A stretch of 44,128 nt of DNA from a virus (taxonomy: Duplodnaviria; Caudoviricetes), in the IMG/VR virus record IMGVR_UViG_3300025646_000087, positions 1-44,128 of that record; one strand, given 5' to 3'. Made by a program: the position numbers and the translations under genes. The notes below the pieces were generated by a model. The model saw nothing but the letters and a program-made list of their open reading frames with translations. It did no database searches and was not told where the DNA came from. Shown here in pieces: positions 4,538 through 44,128 of this stretch (the first letter of the stretch is position 1; the number at the start of each line of letters is the position of its first letter).

Positions 4538-5044
4538 TTATAGCGTAACGATATCGTCCGGATCTGCGATCGTCGCGATTACTTCGTCGTCGTTTATTAT
4601 TCGGCATTCAGCATCATCGCCTAATTTAAAGCGAGCTCCTGCATACCGTCCTATTAGCACCCAGCTTCTTTCTTGACACCAGGGTGTGTCTCCAAATTTA
4701 TCTTTGTCTTTATAACAAAGCGGTCCCATCTTGACCACATACGCAACAACAGAAGCTAAAGCCTCTCTGTCAACAGTATCTTTTACAAGCGTGATTCCAC
4801 CTTTGGATACTCCTCGACCGCGATACGGAAGTATCAACATACGCCAGCCGCTAGGACTTGGCATACGCTCGATCAAAGATTTAGACATCAGGGTTGGGTC
4901 TAATACTCTTTCGTCGGGACTAACAAAAGCAGAATCTACTTCTGATTTGCTTTCCTCAACTTTTTTTTCCTGATTAGCTTTTGCAGCTTCTAGTTCTACT
5001 TCAGCAGCAATATGGTCAGGTACCAGTACTCTCTTCTCCGTCAT
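4538..5044 (-). CDS. groES: GroES/Cpn10-like co-chaperonin
   Basis: P.GWRMLI, SKGGITL mobile loop, VVKMGP, GRYAGAR, RIINDDEVIA. Confidence 0.8.
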   Translation of the reverse strand: MTEKRVLVPDHIAAEVELEAAKANQEKKVEESKSEVDSAFVSPDERVLDPTLMSKSLIERMPSPSGWRMLILPYRGRGVSKGGITLVKDTVDREALASVVAYVVKMGPLCYKDKDKFGDTPWCQERSWVLIGRYAGARFKLGDDAECRIINDDEVIATIADPDDIVTL

Positions 5045-10959: not shown

Positions 10960-12309
10960 TTATCGTAATCCTTTTAATTGCATTTGTATCATATCAATTG
11001 GGCCGCCGTATGCAAAGGCAAAACGGTTAAATGGCTGTATTGGTAAATTTGGTCTAGTTTGTACTGGCATTCTTGGCGCAGTAGTTGGAATCGTTCTAGG
11101 TGGTTGCGAAACTATCGGACTAACTGATCTTGGCGCTGGTTCAGTAGGTAAAGGCTTAAACCGTTGTACTAATCCGCTGATACCGCCTGTTTCAGTAGGA
11201 GGGGGTAAGTCAACACGCGGACTATAAAATTTACCACCTGGTTCGTAAAGTCCTGGAGATCCGCCAGCATATAACTTACCATCTGAAGGAGGAGCTGAAG
11301 GAGTCGGAGCTAGCGGAGTCATTTCTACTGGCGGTTGATATATTTTAAAATCTTCTGGCTTGCCGCCGCCCGCAGTTACTCTCCCATATAAATCTTGAAT
11401 CCCTTGTTGAATGGCATCCCCACCTGGCATCATACTTACAGCAGCATCTATTCTTTCTTGATCGCGTAAATACGAATCAAAAGGTGTAGCAGGTTGTTCG
11501 CTAATAACTGCTGGAACTTCTGCAGCCTTTTGTCCTAACGCAGAGATTTGGGCTTGCAAGTCGGCTATTGTCGACTCCCTCTCACCCAATAAACTTTGTC
11601 TCTCAGAAAGCAACGATTGCTTTTGGGATTCAAGCGCCTGCGCTTGTTCTTCTGCAGCTTGAGCTCTTATTACATCTTGTTTTGCTATCGCTTGATCTCT
11701 TTCTGCGGTAACGTTGGCAAGCGCTTGATTGATTTCGTTAATCTGACCTTCGTAACCACTCGTCACTTGTTGCAACTTTTCGGCAGCTCTTGCTTCGGCT
11801 GCGGCAACGGCGTTGACGCCTCTGGCTTCTGCTTCGGCAACGGCTTGCTGAAGTTCAGATTGTAATCTTGCTTGCTGTTCGTTAAGCGCTTGAATTTTTT
11901 CTTCACTTAACTGCTGACGAATAACGTCTTGCATTTCGATAGCGTCGTTTCTCTCGACGAGTAAACCTTGCTTGGCAGTTTCTAATTCTTGAATACTGCC
12001 TTGCAATTGATTGACTTGGTCTCCGTAATATCTTTCTACTTCTGCGGCTCTTGCGCCTAACGCTGCGCCGAAAGATTGAAAGTCACCCATACCAGCAGTT
12101 GTAGTATCAGTTGTAGTTGTAGTATCTTCCTGGCCGGAGGAATCCTGTTGTTCTTGTTCTGTAATTCTTGGGGGTGGCCCTCCGAAGAAATTAATATCCT
12201 GTAGGTAATTTACGGGCTCAAAGGATGGTAACTCAATAGGGCCTCTAACAGCCGAGCCCATCTCCGGTAGATTTAAAAATGAATAATCTGTTACGAAACC
12301 ATTTGCCAT
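10960..12309 (-). CDS. Coiled-coil, Pro-rich putative internal virion protein
   Basis: Start moved from 12348 to ATG 12309 (RBS AGGA; upstream is structured RNA); internal duplication ER..AI..QDVIR.Q..EE..QAL; C-terminal FAYGG. Confidence 0.65.
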   Translation of the reverse strand: MANGFVTDYSFLNLPEMGSAVRGPIELPSFEPVNYLQDINFFGGPPPRITEQEQQDSSGQEDTTTTTDTTTAGMGDFQSFGAALGARAAEVERYYGDQVNQLQGSIQELETAKQGLLVERNDAIEMQDVIRQQLSEEKIQALNEQQARLQSELQQAVAEAEARGVNAVAAAEARAAEKLQQVTSGYEGQINEINQALANVTAERDQAIAKQDVIRAQAAEEQAQALESQKQSLLSERQSLLGERESTIADLQAQISALGQKAAEVPAVISEQPATPFDSYLRDQERIDAAVSMMPGGDAIQQGIQDLYGRVTAGGGKPEDFKIYQPPVEMTPLAPTPSAPPSDGKLYAGGSPGLYEPGGKFYSPRVDLPPPTETGGISGLVQRFKPLPTEPAPRSVSPIVSQPPRTIPTTAPRMPVQTRPNLPIQPFNRFAFAYGGPIDMIQMQLKGLR

Positions 12310-12334
12310 ATATTTCCTACATATATTTTTAAGC

Positions 12335-12398
12335 AGCGAGTAAAGCAAAAGTCTTGGAGAAGATAGTATGAACGAAGTGCTAAATACTCTACTCGCTT
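12335..12398 (-). ncRNA. Structured leader/sRNA at the start of the late operon
   Basis: 12-bp stem AGCGAGUAGAGU/GCUUUACUCGCU (two G-U pairs, minus strand only); inner UCUU-CUCC-AAGA hairpin; starts at predicted +1 of the adjacent promoter. Confidence 0.6.
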
Positions 12399-12404
12399 GG
12401 GAAA

Positions 12405-12433
12405 ATGATAGCCGACTAAGGGATCCTTTACAA
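12405..12433 (-). promoter_or_regulatory. Sigma70-type promoter for late head operon
   Basis: TTGTAA-N17-TATCAT. Confidence 0.65.
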
Positions 12434-12589
12434 GCAAAGAATCAAAAGTTGAAAAATGCCTGAGTTTTTAACTATATTGTTGTCCTTTAGTTGTATGTGT
12501 AAGGATGTTATTTTGTTTTAGGGGGGTACCCGTCTCGCTTTTTATACTTATCTGTCCGACTTTACCGACCGAAAAGAATCATATACAGC

Positions 12590-12644
12590 CAACACGCGTA
12601 GCGTGTTGACCTTATTACTCTCGAGCGAACGAAGTGAGCGAGAG
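12590..12644. other. Tandem DNA hairpins, pas/ssi-like
   Basis: CAACACGC-GTA-GCGTGTTG and CTCTCG...CGAGAG enclosing GAGCGAACGAAGTGAGCGAG. Confidence 0.4.
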
Positions 12645-12685
12645 CGATTGGATAGGGCGGAATAGATCTATAGACTAAAATAGCA

Positions 12686-12721
12686 ATAAATACGGCTAGA
12701 TATAGATAAATATGGCTAGAT
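12686..12721. repeat. Direct repeat ATAAATAYGGCTAGAT x2, 20-bp period
   Basis: 12686-12701 and 12706-12721, partial copy following. Confidence 0.7.
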
Positions 12722-12822
12722 TTGGCTATAAATACCCCAGTATTTGCCTATATTTGCCCTTGTTTTGCCGTTTTTCTGTAGATTTTAGCCCTCTTACCTC
12801 TCCCCTACCCTAGCATTTAGAT

Positions 12823-12853
12823 AAAAAAAAGGGGGCTAAATGCCCCCTCTTTT
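12823..12853 (-). terminator. Rho-independent terminator, possibly bidirectional
   Basis: AGGGGGC/GCCCCCT stem with T8 on minus and CTTTT on plus; closes the 13842-12897 operon. Confidence 0.85.
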
Positions 12854-12896
12854 CCGTTCTTATCCTAATCTATTAACCAAAGGAAGATAGTTAGGA

Positions 12897-13118
12897 CTAA
12901 TACGGCAAACACTCATACTCCTTAGCCTGACATGCAGAGATAAATTTGACATCATCAAATCTAGGATTGCATGTTCGGAAGTAATCGCAGAGCTCACTTA
13001 CCAAGTCGCTTGAGTCAATCCACCTAGTCAGGTTTCTAGTATTAACCTCACTAGCATCTTCTCTCAGTTCAGAGATAATCTCGGCTATCGCTTTAAAGTC
13101 GCGTTTACTCATACTCAT
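12897..13118 (-). CDS. Small hypothetical early protein
   Basis: 73 aa; MSKRDF.AIA...NPRFD..KF..AC; RBS GAGGTG. Confidence 0.7.
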   Translation of the reverse strand: MSMSKRDFKAIAEIISELREDASEVNTRNLTRWIDSSDLVSELCDYFRTCNPRFDDVKFISACQAKEYECLPY

Positions 13119-15889: not shown

Positions 15890-16416
15890 TGGACGCTATA
15901 GAAACAATTAAAACCAAAAGATTTATCGCTGATATTTATATTGATGATATGCCATATAGCCCTAGAGAAGATGACAATCTAGGAACGCTAATAGCATTTC
16001 ATTCTAGGTATGACTTATCAGATGACGATAGATGGACTAAAGAGGAATTGATAGAACATGTTGCAAAAGAAGATGTTTTATCTTTACCCGTTTATATGTA
16101 TGAACATTCGGGAGTAGCCCTATCTACTGAGCCATTTTCTTGTTCTTGGGATAGTGGGCAAGTAGGTTATATCTTTGTTTCTCATGCTGAGATTATTGAG
16201 TGCTACGGCAAACTAGATTTAGATACAGCTAAGAAGTGTTTAGAAACTGAGATAGACGAATACGGACTTTATCTTAACGGAGAGGTTTACGGCTATAAGG
16301 TATATCGCAAAGACGGAGAAGATGTTAATTCTTGTTGGGGATATATTGGCTACGATAATGCCGTATATGAAACTAATGTAGCACTAGCATGTGCTGAGGA
16401 GAACGAAGATGAGTAA
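15889..16416 (+). CDS. Acidic protein of a recurrent phage/mobile-element hypothetical family
   Basis: 175 aa; SPRE.DNLG, LPVYMYEHSG, WDSGQVGYI, LNGEVYGY, SCWGY motifs; RBS AAGGAG. Confidence 0.75.
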   Translation: MDAIETIKTKRFIADIYIDDMPYSPREDDNLGTLIAFHSRYDLSDDDRWTKEELIEHVAKEDVLSLPVYMYEHSGVALSTEPFSCSWDSGQVGYIFVSHAEIIECYGKLDLDTAKKCLETEIDEYGLYLNGEVYGYKVYRKDGEDVNSCWGYIGYDNAVYETNVALACAEENEDE

Positions 16417-16561
16417 TAAATGGAGATATGTTGTATGGGTTGGTGGTTGTGATGATTACTATACTGAATACGAGAGAGCCAAAGAGCATTATGATAAATG
16501 GATTGAGCAAGGATATGATGATGTGCATTTATTAAAACTAAAGGAGAACGAAGATGAGTAG
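16409..16561 (+). CDS. Small hypothetical protein (50 aa, not in ORF track)
   Basis: MSNKWRYVVWVGGCDDYYTEYERAKEHYDKWIEQGYDDVHLLKLKENEDE, starts in AGGAGAACGAAGATG repeat. Confidence 0.75.
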   Translation: MSNKWRYVVWVGGCDDYYTEYERAKEHYDKWIEQGYDDVHLLKLKENEDE

Positions 16562-16889
16562 CTATATCTCTGAAATTGTAGAAGAAGATGTTATTACTTG
16601 CGAATGTTGTAAAAAGAACTTTCTAACAAATGAAATTACTTTAGATGATTTCAATTTCGCGTGGGATAACTATACAACGATTGATTGTTGTTCTGATTGT
16701 GCAAGTAGCAATATGGAATGTTATGCGATTGATTTTGACAAAATGAATAATTCTCAAAAGTTATCCTTTGTTGCCGAAAGAAATGGATATGTTGAAGACG
16801 GAATAGGTTATTTAGATGACGGCAACGAATTCCGAGATGACAACGGACAAGCACTTTTTATTGATAACGAGGAGAACGAAGATGTCTGA
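16554..16889 (+). CDS. Acidic CxxC zinc-binding hypothetical protein
   Basis: CECC...CSDC; 111 aa. Confidence 0.7.
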   Translation: MSSYISEIVEEDVITCECCKKNFLTNEITLDDFNFAWDNYTTIDCCSDCASSNMECYAIDFDKMNNSQKLSFVAERNGYVEDGIGYLDDGNEFRDDNGQALFIDNEENEDV

Positions 16890-17001
16890 GAAAGAGATTA
16901 TAGAAGAATTAGTATTAATGATTACTTGCGATTATTGGGATTTAATTCCTGAACATCATCAAAAAATTATTGAACAACGATTACAAAAACTAGGTTTATA
17001 A
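16882..17001 (+). CDS. Small hypothetical protein (39 aa)
   Basis: Start moved to ATG 16882 within RBS repeat. Confidence 0.65.
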   Translation: MSEKEIIEELVLMITCDYWDLIPEHHQKIIEQRLQKLGL

Positions 17002-17012
17002 GGAGAACGAAG

Positions 17013-17216
17013 ATGAGCGTAATAACTAAACCAAAAATAAAAACTAAATCATGGACGGCAGTAATAACTTACTCCGTACTTGATATGGGCAGAGAGTGCG
17101 ATACTCAAGAAGAATATATTGAGATGGTAAAAGATCATTTCAGAGAAGAACATAATATCGAATTAACCGATAACGAGATAACCGATATTGAATTTGACGA
17201 GGTGGAATATGAGTAA
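17013..17216 (+). CDS. Acidic hypothetical protein
   Basis: 67 aa, RBS repeat. Confidence 0.7.
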   Translation: MSVITKPKIKTKSWTAVITYSVLDMGRECDTQEEYIEMVKDHFREEHNIELTDNEITDIEFDEVEYE

Positions 17217-21004: not shown

Positions 21005-21274
21005 CTATTTGTCTTTTTCAGGGGTAAAATCAGGGATAAATTCTATCTCTTTTGTTAGACCAAAAGAATTTTCTAAGATCTCATCTATTTTAAGAATACC
21101 TTGTTCGATTGTTGTTGAATAATCGAAGACTCTTGAGGTTCCGAAGGTAAAAAAAAGTAAGGCGACAAATTCCGCATCTGCGCCGCGTTCGATAAGTTCC
21201 GAGAATAAAGATTCAAGTCTACGTTCAGCTTCTTGTACGGAAGGTTTCTTCTTTTTGATTTCCAAGACTTTCAT
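21005..21274 (-). CDS. Hypothetical protein, possibly leaderless
   Basis: 89 aa; no SD, TAAACT -10-like box 6 nt before ATG. Confidence 0.6.
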   Translation of the reverse strand: MKVLEIKKKKPSVQEAERRLESLFSELIERGADAEFVALLFFTFGTSRVFDYSTTIEQGILKIDEILENSFGLTKEIEFIPDFTPEKDK

Positions 21275-21628: not shown

Positions 21629-21841
21629 TTAGTGTACCCCCATTTCTCTGATAAGTTTTGCTGATACCTCTTCTATTAAACAAGTAAGTCTAGAAGTATC
21701 GTTGGATATCTGCCAAGTGTAGATATCGGTTTTGGTTATTTCTATTAGACCTGCTTTGAAGTATTGTTCCATCAGCGCAAAGATAGAGTCTCGTAAGACA
21801 TCTCTTGTTTGGTCTATTTGTTCAGATATTGTTTCGTTCAT
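21629..21841 (-). CDS. Hypothetical protein
   Basis: 70 aa, RBS GGAGGAG. Confidence 0.7.
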   Translation of the reverse strand: MNETISEQIDQTRDVLRDSIFALMEQYFKAGLIEITKTDIYTWQISNDTSRLTCLIEEVSAKLIREMGVH

Positions 21842-21870
21842 ATTAGCTCCTCCGAAAATTATCTACACTT

Positions 21871-21915: not shown

Positions 21916-21939
21916 TAGTAATTATATATAGGAGCATAT

Positions 21940-22122
21940 ATGAACGAAGTAAAAAATTTAATTGAAGGCGTCCTTGCCTTACAAAGTCCAACCGCACCCG
22001 TCGGCAGAATCGACATGCAAAAAGACCTAGACTCTATGAAAAAGATCAACGCGTTTGTTGAGTACATCTATACTCATCATCCCGCGTTGTTTGAGAAAGC
22101 CTACAAGGAAGCCAGCAAGTGA
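21940..22122 (+). CDS. Hypothetical protein, first gene of helicase operon
   Basis: 60 aa, RBS AGGAG. Confidence 0.7.
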   Translation: MNEVKNLIEGVLALQSPTAPVGRIDMQKDLDSMKKINAFVEYIYTHHPALFEKAYKEASK

Positions 22123-26834: not shown

Positions 26835-27542
26835 TTAGCCTCCTGTTGTAAAACCAAGTTTATTAATAATATGCGTTAAGTTAGGCTCTTCAAAAGTATC
26901 TAACTTACCACTCCTGTCTTTGGCGGTGTAATTCGCGCCAAGGGTTGTTTGTAACCAACGATTGGTTACCTTCTTACCTTCTTCATTTTCTTCTTCAAAA
27001 ACTCTAAGTACTAGAACTTCATCAAAGAAGTAAGGTATTTGAACTGGAAGTTTTGCACCTACCATCATAGGTTGATACGTAAACATTCCGGTTTGCTCAT
27101 CACGTATCTTGTCCTCTTTAGCAACAAAGATGACGTGAATTTTGAGATCCCTAAACCTACGCATAGTTTTGGTCATAATTTCTATAACCTCGCCATAAGC
27201 ACGTCTTGGGTCTTTGCTTTTAGCTTTTTCAGCTGCAAGCAAAATCTCTGACATTTCTGTCACGCTGTCCAAGCAAACGGTATCGTAATCAAGTTGACCT
27301 GACTCAAGTAGTTGAGCGATCTCCTCGATTTCATGCGCTTCTTTAACCTCAATAGCAGTAACGTTCTCTTGATCTCTAATAGATAAGAGTCCGGCCTCCA
27401 TACTGATGATTAAAGTTTTGCCTGGGGCAGTTGCGCAGGTAGTCGTCTTACCTGCTCCTGATGCTCCGTAGATTAAGATTTTTGCACCTTGTTTTTCTAC
27501 GAGTTCATTAGGACTTTTTATACGACTCAATATATCAGACAT
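26835..27542 (-). CDS. AAA_24 / Sak4-like recombination ATPase
   Basis: LIYGASGAGKTT, VCLDSVTE, AKDRSG. Confidence 0.85.
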   Translation of the reverse strand: MSDILSRIKSPNELVEKQGAKILIYGASGAGKTTTCATAPGKTLIISMEAGLLSIRDQENVTAIEVKEAHEIEEIAQLLESGQLDYDTVCLDSVTEMSEILLAAEKAKSKDPRRAYGEVIEIMTKTMRRFRDLKIHVIFVAKEDKIRDEQTGMFTYQPMMVGAKLPVQIPYFFDEVLVLRVFEEENEEGKKVTNRWLQTTLGANYTAKDRSGKLDTFEEPNLTHIINKLGFTTGG

Positions 27543-27632
27543 ATATCTTCTCCTTTTTTTTATAAAAAGTATTTTAATTTAATTTATTTAGAATTACAAT
27601 TAGTCAACAAGAAAATATGAACGGATTGTAAA

Positions 27633-27968
27633 ATGAATGAAGTGCACAAAGATCAATGGAAAGTAAACTATCTTTGGAGGTTAAAAACTTTAACCGATAG
27701 AGAGCTTAATACATTTCTTGCAGAAAAACTAGAACCTGAATACAAGGAGAGAGAGGTGCGAAGATATACCTTAAAAGAATATATTGAATTTGTAGGTACA
27801 GAACCTGCAGCAGAATTATTTGATTGCTCGCCAGCAACTACTAAAGCTTGGCGATATGGTTTAAGACAACCGTCAATCAAACAAGCAAAAAAAATAATCA
27901 AAGCTAGTGGGGGCAAACTTGATTTTGAATCTATATATGGACCGCTAGAAGACAAGAGTGAAAGTTAA
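27633..27968 (+). CDS. Cro/YdaS-like HTH regulator
   Basis: TLKEYI...AAELFDCSPATTKAWRYGLRQPS...IIKASGGK. Confidence 0.75.
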   Translation: MNEVHKDQWKVNYLWRLKTLTDRELNTFLAEKLEPEYKEREVRRYTLKEYIEFVGTEPAAELFDCSPATTKAWRYGLRQPSIKQAKKIIKASGGKLDFESIYGPLEDKSES

Positions 27969-42488: not shown

Positions 42489-44128
42489 TTATTTCCAAGT
42501 ATATATCTTCAAAGGCTTGCTTTTGCCTTTGACCATTATAGGTTCTAATTCTAGCAAATGGTAGCCACACATCAACTCAGTACTCTCACCTATTAATATA
42601 TTGACTCCACGCTCTTTAGTAGCAGATTCTAACCTTGCTGCTGTATTAACAGCATCTCCTATTGCGGTATAGTCAAATCTATTTTCGCTACCCATATTAC
42701 CAACAATAGCTTCACCCGTATTGATACCAATACCTATAGCTATTCCTGGCAGATTTTCTGATTGCAGCTCTTGATTTAATATTTCTATATTCTTCATTAT
42801 CTCTACGCCACATTCTACTGCTCTCTTAGCGTGATTACGCATATCTAAAGGTGCGTTAAATATAGCCATCATCGCATCTCCAATATATTTATCTACCATA
42901 CCCTCATACTTTTGAACTGCCTTTTGTTGAGCAGTTAAAACCTTGTTCATAATATAAGTAACTTCTTCAGGTGTAACACTTTCAGATAAAGCGGTAAAAC
43001 CTCTTAAGTCAGTAAAGATAAAAGTACAGTTTCTTTTTTCGCCACCTAGTTTTAATAGATCAGGATTCTTTTGTAATTGTTTGACTTGTCTTGGGTCAAG
43101 ATAGTGTTCAAATTGTTTTTTAATTTGTTGTCTAAGTTTGAATTGTTCTTTGAATCTTAAATAGAAAGCTAACGTGCCTACAATAAAACTAGATATAAAC
43201 GCCCAAGTTATATCTATCAATAAACCATTCTTGATAAAAGTTGAGCCAACAACTATTTGTATAGCTAAAACAAATAAAAAACTTATTGCACTTAACGCAA
43301 TACCAAAGTAACTAAGACAAATCCAAACCAATACTACAGATATAAAGAATATGAATATTTCAACCGCTAGACTATAATCAGGAATATATGGTGAATCTTC
43401 TATCAAAATGGATTCGGCAAGTGCTGCTTGGATTTTGTGTGGTTCTAATAAGCCTGCTGGCGTTGCCACTTGCGGCATTACACCTTGCGCTGTTACCCCT
43501 ACAAAAACGAATTTATTTTCAACATCCATTTCGGCAAGAGTAGTTTCAGGCGTATCAACCCAACTGATCCACTTGCGGCCTAAACTATCTGTCTTAACTG
43601 GTGGTATGCCTTTGACAGTTATTTCTTGAATACCATTTTCATTTGTTTTAATAATGTAGGTATCAGAGCCTGCTAGTATTTTTAATACTTGCGTACCGTA
43701 AGCAGGTATCCAACCATCCGGGCTTTTCATCAATAACGGTATGCGTCTTACCAAGTTATCAACATCTACGGGAGCAACGGCTACACCTTCTGGAGCCGCT
43801 ATGACGTTTTGTCTTACACCTCTGGCTGAATAACCAATGACATCCGGACCAAGTATGACAGTTCCTGTTGTTTTAGGATAAAACTTGGTATCGTTTTCAA
43901 ACATCGCCAATACCGTAGGTACGGTCATATTAATGGCTTCTGCAAATTCTTGATCGCCTCCAAATCTATCTTGTTCGGTAAAAGCTATTACCCAACCAAC
44001 CCCAATAGCACCTTTGCCATACAGTTGTTTTTGGATTTCTGCAAGTCTTTGTCTTGGAAATGGGTAGCCGCCTTCTTTGACTACGTCAGCTTCAGTAATA
44101 TTTAAAATAGTAAAATAGCCAGATGGAT
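42489..44128 (-). CDS. CHASE2-domain class III adenylate cyclase (5'-partial)
   Basis: Frame open beyond 43928 to window edge (ILNI.E...GGYPFPR, DRFGGD); three TM helices; FTDLRGFT, DKYIGDAMMA, GIGINTG, DYTAIGDAVNTAARLES. Confidence 0.9.
   Translation of the reverse strand, partial: PSGYFTILNITEADVVKEGGYPFPRQRLAEIQKQLYGKGAIGVGWVIAFTEQDRFGGDQEFAEAINMTVPTVLAMFENDTKFYPKTTGTVILGPDVIGYSARGVRQNVIAAPEGVAVAPVDVDNLVRRIPLLMKSPDGWIPAYGTQVLKILAGSDTYIIKTNENGIQEITVKGIPPVKTDSLGRKWISWVDTPETTLAEMDVENKFVFVGVTAQGVMPQVATPAGLLEPHKIQAALAESILIEDSPYIPDYSLAVEIFIFFISVVLVWICLSYFGIALSAISFLFVLAIQIVVGSTFIKNGLLIDITWAFISSFIVGTLAFYLRFKEQFKLRQQIKKQFEHYLDPRQVKQLQKNPDLLKLGGEKRNCTFIFTDLRGFTALSESVTPEEVTYIMNKVLTAQQKAVQKYEGMVDKYIGDAMMAIFNAPLDMRNHAKRAVECGVEIMKNIEILNQELQSENLPGIAIGIGINTGEAIVGNMGSENRFDYTAIGDAVNTAARLESATKERGVNILIGESTELMCGYHLLELEPIMVKGKSKPLKIYTWK

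Follow-up and report, generated by a model that had tools for sequence, protein, structure and literature searches.

Upstream of the packaging genes of an uncultured phage lies an element that, judged from sequence comparison, is a real, conserved and apparently undescribed phage RNA structure: a single hairpin read from the minus strand, with a large open loop. The comparative evidence that this loop pairs with the phage's own messages is good but incomplete, and we consider it probable that the hairpin RNA pairs in trans with the starts of the phage's early genes and blocks ribosome loading there. Searches of literature listings returned no description of the element. No copy of the loop is present in six supplementary files of PMC10690425; three large files lay outside that search, so it may be listed there.

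Genome context

The window (the whole 44,128-nucleotide stretch of DNA analysed here) represents most of an uncultured phage genome and is 37.6% GC. The terminase-portal-GroES-capsid block is on the minus strand below position 12309, with the GroES-like gene at 4538-5044 (minus strand) inside it. Small genes of unassigned function occupy 12.9-22.8 kb, and the replication genes are at 23-31 kb, coding for a helicase, exonuclease VIII, SSB, Sak4, a repressor-like protein, a primase-polymerase and a resolvase; a gene with CHASE2 and adenylate/guanylate cyclase matches (PF05226, PF00211) is at 42489-43928 on the minus strand. The closest named phages (023Pt_psg01, DSL-LC04, HTVC027P and HTVC023P) have terminases 59-63% identical to that of the window (61-63% for HTVC027P and DSL-LC04), and the DNA occurs in runs labelled freshwater, marine, estuary, lagoon and oyster.

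Among the small genes, 16409, 16554, 16882 and 17013 (16395-17015, plus strand) all have a near-identical 14-nt leader ahead of the start codon. Entire genes between leaders are skipped in related-strain contigs at 17.6-18.8 kb, which suggests gene shuffling at ribosome-binding repeats.

A hairpin at the head of the packaging block

On the minus strand, positions 12335-12397 are predicted to fold into a 13-bp stem closing a 37-nt open loop, with a free energy of -16.5 kcal/mol (Table 1). The z-score of the fold is -3.29 on the minus strand, with one of 200 shuffles as low, versus -2.11 on the plus strand. An earlier note on this DNA, made from the sequence alone, had described a 12-bp stem; the stem is real but has 13 bp, joining 12335-12347 to 12385-12397. 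The same note placed a mini-hairpin displaying an anti-Shine-Dalgarno motif beside it, and this structure appears in the folds of many relatives but in neither the minimum-energy nor the centroid fold of the window, in which the loop is fully open. In a 200-nt transcript the predicted unpaired probabilities of the loop bases are mostly 0.4-0.9. A promoter of its own, a conserved structure and an accessible seed, the features of a trans-acting base-pairing sRNA, are thus all found in the element by prediction. The minus strand has no terminator-like site between 12300 and 12400, hence no intrinsic terminator with a U tail, and 25 nt separate the hairpin from the first gene of the packaging block in the window. 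Rfam gives no match at gathering score in the window, and none of ten weak matches in 12200-12900 overlaps the element.

Table 1. Positions of the hairpin, its promoter, the neighbouring gene and the predicted targets. Positions are those of the window, except in the last three rows, which refer to the records named.
Feature	Position	Strand	Description
Sigma-70-type promoter	12405..12433	-	-35 at 12428-12433, -10 at 12405-12410, 17-nt spacer; start predicted at ~12398
Stem 5' arm	12385..12397	-	Supported by fold and covariation
Loop box 1	12368..12380	-	Complementary to the start codon and the codons after it in 27633, 21940 and 21841
Loop box 2	12356..12365	-	Complement of Shine-Dalgarno and spacer of the Sak4 gene
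Loop 3' end	12348..12358	-	Complement of codons 2-5 of gene 21274
Stem 3' arm	12335..12347	-	Supported by fold; A-rich tract next
449-aa gene	10960..12309	-	No family; first gene downstream of hairpin, at head of terminase-portal-GroES-capsid block
27633 start	27633..27645	+	Predicted box-1 target; repressor-like gene 27633-27968, first gene before primase
Sak4 ribosome-binding site	27544..27553	-	Predicted box-2 target; Sak4-like gene 26835-27542, heads leftward Sak4-SSB unit
21940 start	21939..21950	+	Predicted box-1 target; gene 21940-22122, 60 aa, first of helicase-exonuclease unit
21274 start	21261..21271	-	Predicted target of loop 3' end; gene 21005-21274, 89 aa, apparently leaderless
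21841 start match	21833..21842	-	Gene 21629-21841; box-1 match, not kept in relatives
Distant hairpin, box 2 only	L050 6485-6552
Distant hairpin, box 2 only	L042 2140-2190
Distant hairpin, box 2 only	L043 828-892

The promoter noticed at first reading, with a 17-nt spacer and a start at ~12398, is present as a promoter-like site on the minus strand, and the stem starts 7 nt behind its -10 hexamer; the start site is a prediction. Its score (9 of 12) is unremarkable by itself, with 35 such sites in the window compared to 56.6 in shuffles. A -10-like hexamer is located 3-13 nt ahead of the stem in all 87 distinct upstream regions, and a -35 with the same first three letters in 84 of them, these counts coming from best-of-window picking without a shuffle control. 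The -35 hexamer is also that of the Sak4 early promoter, so only its position marks it as late. The element is covered by contigs from RNA runs (three metatranscriptome runs, two studies); these continue across the promoter and the 12.5-12.9 kb intergenic region, show neither strand nor start, and were not counted as support for a hairpin transcript.

Several other features are seen around the promoter. A 6-bp palindrome, a candidate operator, is located in the promoter spacer in six of 18 records (12420-12427 in the window) and 134-144 nt downstream of the loop in six others (the window also has it at 12525-12531). A 7-nt motif is positioned at nearly fixed spacing 185-216 nt upstream of the loop in 14 of the 18 records (G002, G003, G005, G006, G009, G010, G012, G013, G019, G076, G081, L018, L033 and L035), the window not being among them, and is possibly a genome-end or packaging signal. 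At 12613-12650 there is a small plus-strand hairpin (-9.6 kcal/mol), which we take to resemble primosome-assembly sites, followed by short repeats ~10 bp apart at 12690-12770; 12613-12770 is a possible origin region. A second copy of the seed recorded previously at 12627-12636 is present in the window, but in none of the 11 relatives examined.

The RNA is conserved in related phages

The same layout is found at nine loci besides the window among 53 sources, with a weaker candidate in L027 (reached via the terminase, not the loop). The loop pattern occurs at 120 metagenome loci (81 distinct) and 25 virome loci, all of them in the promoter-and-stem context as far as the flanks extend, and the close form alone is present in ~160 metagenome stretches. 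A looser pattern, for the second clade, also matches 120 loci, of which 23 were kept as elements by stem and promoter and the others set aside as ordinary gene starts or chance.

The stem is maintained by compensatory change. Among 38 close copies 97.4% of stem cells are paired and five of 13 pairs are changed on both sides (no shuffle of 500 is as high), compared to 34-47% paired in slid controls; across 57 distinct copies, seven of the eight core pairs are changed on both sides. Many of these changes are from G-C to G-U or from A-U to G-U and would be mismatches if read on the plus strand, and because the G-U pairs hold pairing only on the minus strand, we assign the stem to it. The earlier claim of a minus-strand RNA with strand-specific G-U pairs is therefore borne out by covariation. 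Both loop boxes are kept across clades with a spacer of 2-7 nt, and loop invariance within the close group is partly a product of the search pattern. A plus-strand frame beginning in box 1 is conserved for only about five codons and is therefore not a gene.

The gene following the hairpin varies among lineages, and in several of them hairpin and gene are 120-190 nt apart with a second promoter-like site (read by eye) in between; a role in trans fits these arrangements better than a gene-specific leader. In distant relatives, with terminases 77-78% identical, a hairpin is at the same place with only box 2 kept (Table 1).

No isolated phage was found with either the element or the repressor gene, and of 50 element-bearing records searched for that gene eight contain it. 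Around the terminases of HTVC027P and DSL-LC04 (41 and 34 kb, respectively) a model of the element has no match, nor does it have one in G004 (>90% complete). The model returned two matches in 41 records, one of which, a weak match (E = 0.046) in a coding region of G082 (>90% complete), was rejected. It missed the divergent hairpins of G005, G006 and G081, which a hairpin scan recovered, so these absences are not firm. A stem-only pattern matched two stretches in viral contigs, of which the one inspected is unrelated, and a degenerate pattern for the first downstream gene matched none.

The loop is complementary to early gene starts

Three complementarities reported at first reading, to the starts of genes 21940 (12 nt), 27633 (13 bp with one G-U) and 21841 (10 nt), are all present, and there are two more of at least 10 nt, at the Sak4 ribosome-binding site (10 nt) and at gene 21274 (11 nt). 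The predicted targets are at 21.3-27.6 kb on both strands, 9-15 kb from the element at 12.4 kb, with 10-13 nt of pairing. That the phage's own early gene starts should pair above shuffled controls was also confirmed: exact complements of at least 10 nt occur at four of 74 gene starts, compared to 0.35 for dinucleotide-shuffled loops (four of 1000 reach four), or to 0.69 in a stricter shuffle with the anti-Shine-Dalgarno and anti-start letters fixed (423 of 20000 reach four; p = 0.02). The mean of the five best duplexes is beyond the shuffles (5/1000), and the single best duplex in the window is not significant (131/1000). Early starts pair better than late ones (48 versus 26 genes, -14.1 versus -10.0 kcal/mol, p = 1.4e-4). 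Net binding energies, charged for opening of the target and not of the loop, are strong for 27633 (-22.0 kcal/mol), 21841 (-18.7) and 21940 (-17.6), and weak for Sak4 (-8.5) and 21274 (-7.1), with the primase control at -6.7 kcal/mol. Gene 21841 has the best duplex in the window, but its box-1 match is seen in one of 13 homolog rows, which is the window itself.

The repressor-like gene at 27633 (a weak PHROG35 match, E = 6e-5) is without a Shine-Dalgarno, and 14 records contain both it and the element. The start encodes M-N-E-V in the window, G002, G016 and G020, where 12-13 nt of it pair with box 1. The start is M-N-K-A in G003 and G052, and box 1 is altered at exactly two paired positions, giving 10 of 10 pairs; in G076 it is M-S-E-V (an Asn-to-Ser codon), with a U-to-C change in the loop at exactly the paired position and again 10 of 10 pairs. 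G076 is an independent case, having been reached via the repressor gene with the loop looked at afterwards. In G007, G010, G012 and G019 the start is M-R-E-V and box 1 is unchanged, so that the duplex has eight standard pairs plus a G-U and a mismatch; 65 of 80 repressor-gene loci, the commonest lineage, are of the M-R-E-V type. The repressor start of G013 has one mismatch to box 1, and in G006 it is box 2 that pairs, with 9 nt. When ATG candidates are ranked with the element's own antisense reading left out, the repressor start is first or second among 127-441 candidates in seven of the 14 records and outside the top seven in the other seven. Twenty repressor homologs, not linked to particular loops, mostly start M-N-K-A, and the M-N-K-D and M-S-V starts predicted from other loops are not among them.

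A 9-nt complement of box 2 is found at one of 47 Shine-Dalgarno-bearing starts in the window, that of Sak4, and is absent from all five genomes with another loop or none found. In G003, G052 and G076 the Sak4 start matches both boxes, with own-loop energies that are column-best or close to it. In the lineages of G007, G010, G012, G019 and G013 the fit is carried by box 2, at the Shine-Dalgarno regions of the Sak4, 21940 and 20618 homologs; the 21940 homolog of G013 matches both boxes, at -29.8 kcal/mol. Genes 21274 (minus strand) and 27633 (plus strand) both lack a Shine-Dalgarno, and homologs of 21274 have a -10-like hexamer ~6 nt ahead of the start codon, which suggests leaderless mRNAs. A box-2 complement is also present at a 241-247 aa gene ~13 kb behind the terminase and on the same strand in G002, G003, G009, G010 and G019, and the ribosome-binding site of this gene changes in step with box 2. 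The gene has no Pfam match, is outside the window and is apparently part of the late block (G019 16094-16837 and G003 42189, both plus strand), so the targets may include a late gene.

Loop and some predicted targets change together

The expectation that seed and targets should co-vary is realised for 27633, Sak4, 21274 and, more weakly, 21940, but for 27633 it fails in the commonest lineage, where the change is uncompensated in the four genomes with both loop and start (G007, G010, G012 and G019). Three site changes are compensated on both sides, in two lineages (G076, and G003 with G052). In seven lineages, a preference of gene starts for the loop of their own genome is as strong in 14 of 5040 permutations for 27633 and 33 of 5040 for Sak4; the lineages are related, so these p values overstate independence. 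The own-loop test was extended to the 18 ortholog families (of 45 genes queried) present in at least five of the seven lineages, as a control for base composition and host preference. The four lowest p values belong to Sak4 (0.0065), 27633 (0.0081), 21274 (0.0083) and 21940 (0.042), all first genes of early units, and the other 14 families show no preference (e.g. terminase 0.63, portal 0.73 and capsid 0.57); taken singly, none of the 18 p values stays significant after Bonferroni correction. The choice of Sak4 and 21274 as targets was made after the window was seen, the permutation tests include G005 and G006 despite their weak fit, and the G076 row for 21940 was kept in the family test with an automatic start too far downstream.

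Proposed mode of action

We propose that transcription by the host RNA polymerase begins at the base of the stem, at ~12398, and that the stem would both protect the 5' end and present the 37-nt loop as single strand. In the repressor-like gene 27633 and in gene 21940, the start codon and the codons after it would be covered by box 1. Box 2 would take in the Sak4 Shine-Dalgarno and, in several lineages, also that of the 21940 homolog, and the start of 21274 would be covered by the loop's 3' end. As it accumulates, the RNA, whether leader of the packaging mRNA or a separate piece, would damp the replication and recombination units. A role as timer of the early-to-late transition is the weakest step, since the promoter, sharing its -35 with the Sak4 promoter, could fire early, and the RNA would then be an accumulating brake and not a late switch.

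Alternative explanations

The main target may be a host mRNA, or any start with the same ribosome-binding motif, the phage genes matching through start signals preferred by the host. The drift of the 27633 start in the commonest lineage against a fixed box 1, the ordinary anti-Shine-Dalgarno within box 2 and the match at a probable late gene are all in keeping with this. We nonetheless think it unlikely, given that the structural genes show no own-loop preference, that the 9-nt motif is rare among starts, and that a search for both boxes in 185,579 species genomes yields 31 scattered exact matches, about the chance level and with no recurring host. Control could also run in reverse, with early mRNA ends binding the loop and steering whether the packaging transcript is read through, how it is processed or how stable it is. 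In the window no terminator lies in the 25 nt between the hairpin and the first packaging-block gene, and the promoter looks constitutive; yet the 120-190 nt and second promoter-like site that intervene in several lineages, and the location of all matches on Shine-Dalgarnos or start codons, relevant only if the early mRNAs are regulated, make this decidedly unlikely.

A binding site for a protein on RNA or DNA, of which the matches would be copies (for instance a packaging signal, or an operator for the repressor-like protein), is very unlikely, even though a genome end or origin is probably nearby (the repeats at 12690-12770, and the 7-nt motif ~200 nt upstream in 14 of 18 relatives) and a 10-nt copy is at 12627-12636. 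That copy is missing in all 11 relatives, G-U-rich covariation implies a single-stranded fold, and the matches lie on opposite DNA strands yet always on the mRNA strand of their genes; that they fall on Shine-Dalgarnos and start codons of oppositely facing genes argues for translational control and not a DNA site. It is highly improbable that the hairpin is a real 5' stabilising stem whose gene-start matches are chance or remnants of an old duplication: the matches are short, with p = 0.02 under the strict shuffle and few independent lineages, but three site changes are compensated on both sides in two lineages, and the four best of 18 families are all first genes of early units. Hardly credible is a plus-strand peptide of 31 aa (12368-12463), of which the conserved letters would be ribosome-binding site and start. 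A Shine-Dalgarno and ATG are there, and relatives have ATG, GTG or TTG at this place, but lineages differ in frame beyond about five codons, some have a spacing of 3-4 nt, and there is neither a family match nor a plus-strand promoter pointing into the frame.

The reading preferred here, pairing in trans with early gene starts, has a stronger form that we advance tentatively: an aquatic, podovirus-like lineage may make its early-to-late switch with RNA alone, through a multi-target 5' hairpin whose loop is rewritten as the starts evolve, and which would shut the first gene of each replication and recombination unit, leaderless ones included. If true, this would be a protein-free way to end the replication phase in a widespread group of uncultured phages: a single hairpin would mirror the gene starts of four or five distinct early units, with intermolecular compensated changes across lineages. 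The natural variants provide ready matched and mismatched loop-target pairs, testable in E. coli reporters without the host.

Comparison with known RNAs

The element appears from its sequence to work most like c4 of phages P1 and P7, but is not a member of the c4 family. As described in two articles, c4 is an RNA of ~65-77 nt with three stem-loops, excised by RNase P, that serves immunity by acting in trans on the antirepressor mRNA of its own phage; it does so with two short segments of its loops, of which one lies over the ribosome-binding site, and a few changed letters set lineage specificity (PMC12197685, PMC5320573). The element likewise has two unpaired segments complementary to ribosome-binding regions of its own phage's mRNA. 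It is excluded from c4 by having no Rfam match, one stem and not three, and no antirepressor target; in place of stem-loops P1-P3 it has a single stem, located at what is predicted to be a 5' end, with a loop of 37 nt; it is predicted to target four or five distinct early units (Sak4, the repressor-like gene and others), and no antirepressor family is represented among the 75 proteins scanned in the window.

The lambda OOP and aQ RNAs and P22 sar are antisense RNAs with one target each, which time development via a regulator's mRNA, as covered in the available part of a review in which phage small RNAs act on one phage target or on host RNAs (PMC12197685). The element is proposed to pair with a regulator's mRNA as they do but, unlike the cis-encoded OOP, aQ and sar, is not encoded opposite its targets, which are at 21.3-27.6 kb with the element at 12.4 kb. 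StxS is described as a trans-acting RNA from the 5' end of the late transcript of a Shiga-toxin phage, formed by early termination in lysogens and acting on stx1AB and host rpoS (PMC7547250, PMC12197685). It indicates that the 5' end of a late-promoter transcript can yield a trans-acting RNA, although no terminator follows the stem of the element and its predicted targets are early phage genes. In phage T4 the RegA protein represses translation of several early mRNAs. The element is proposed to resemble RegA in that one phage product damps several early translation starts, and differs in that the predicted agent is the loop of an RNA and not a protein.
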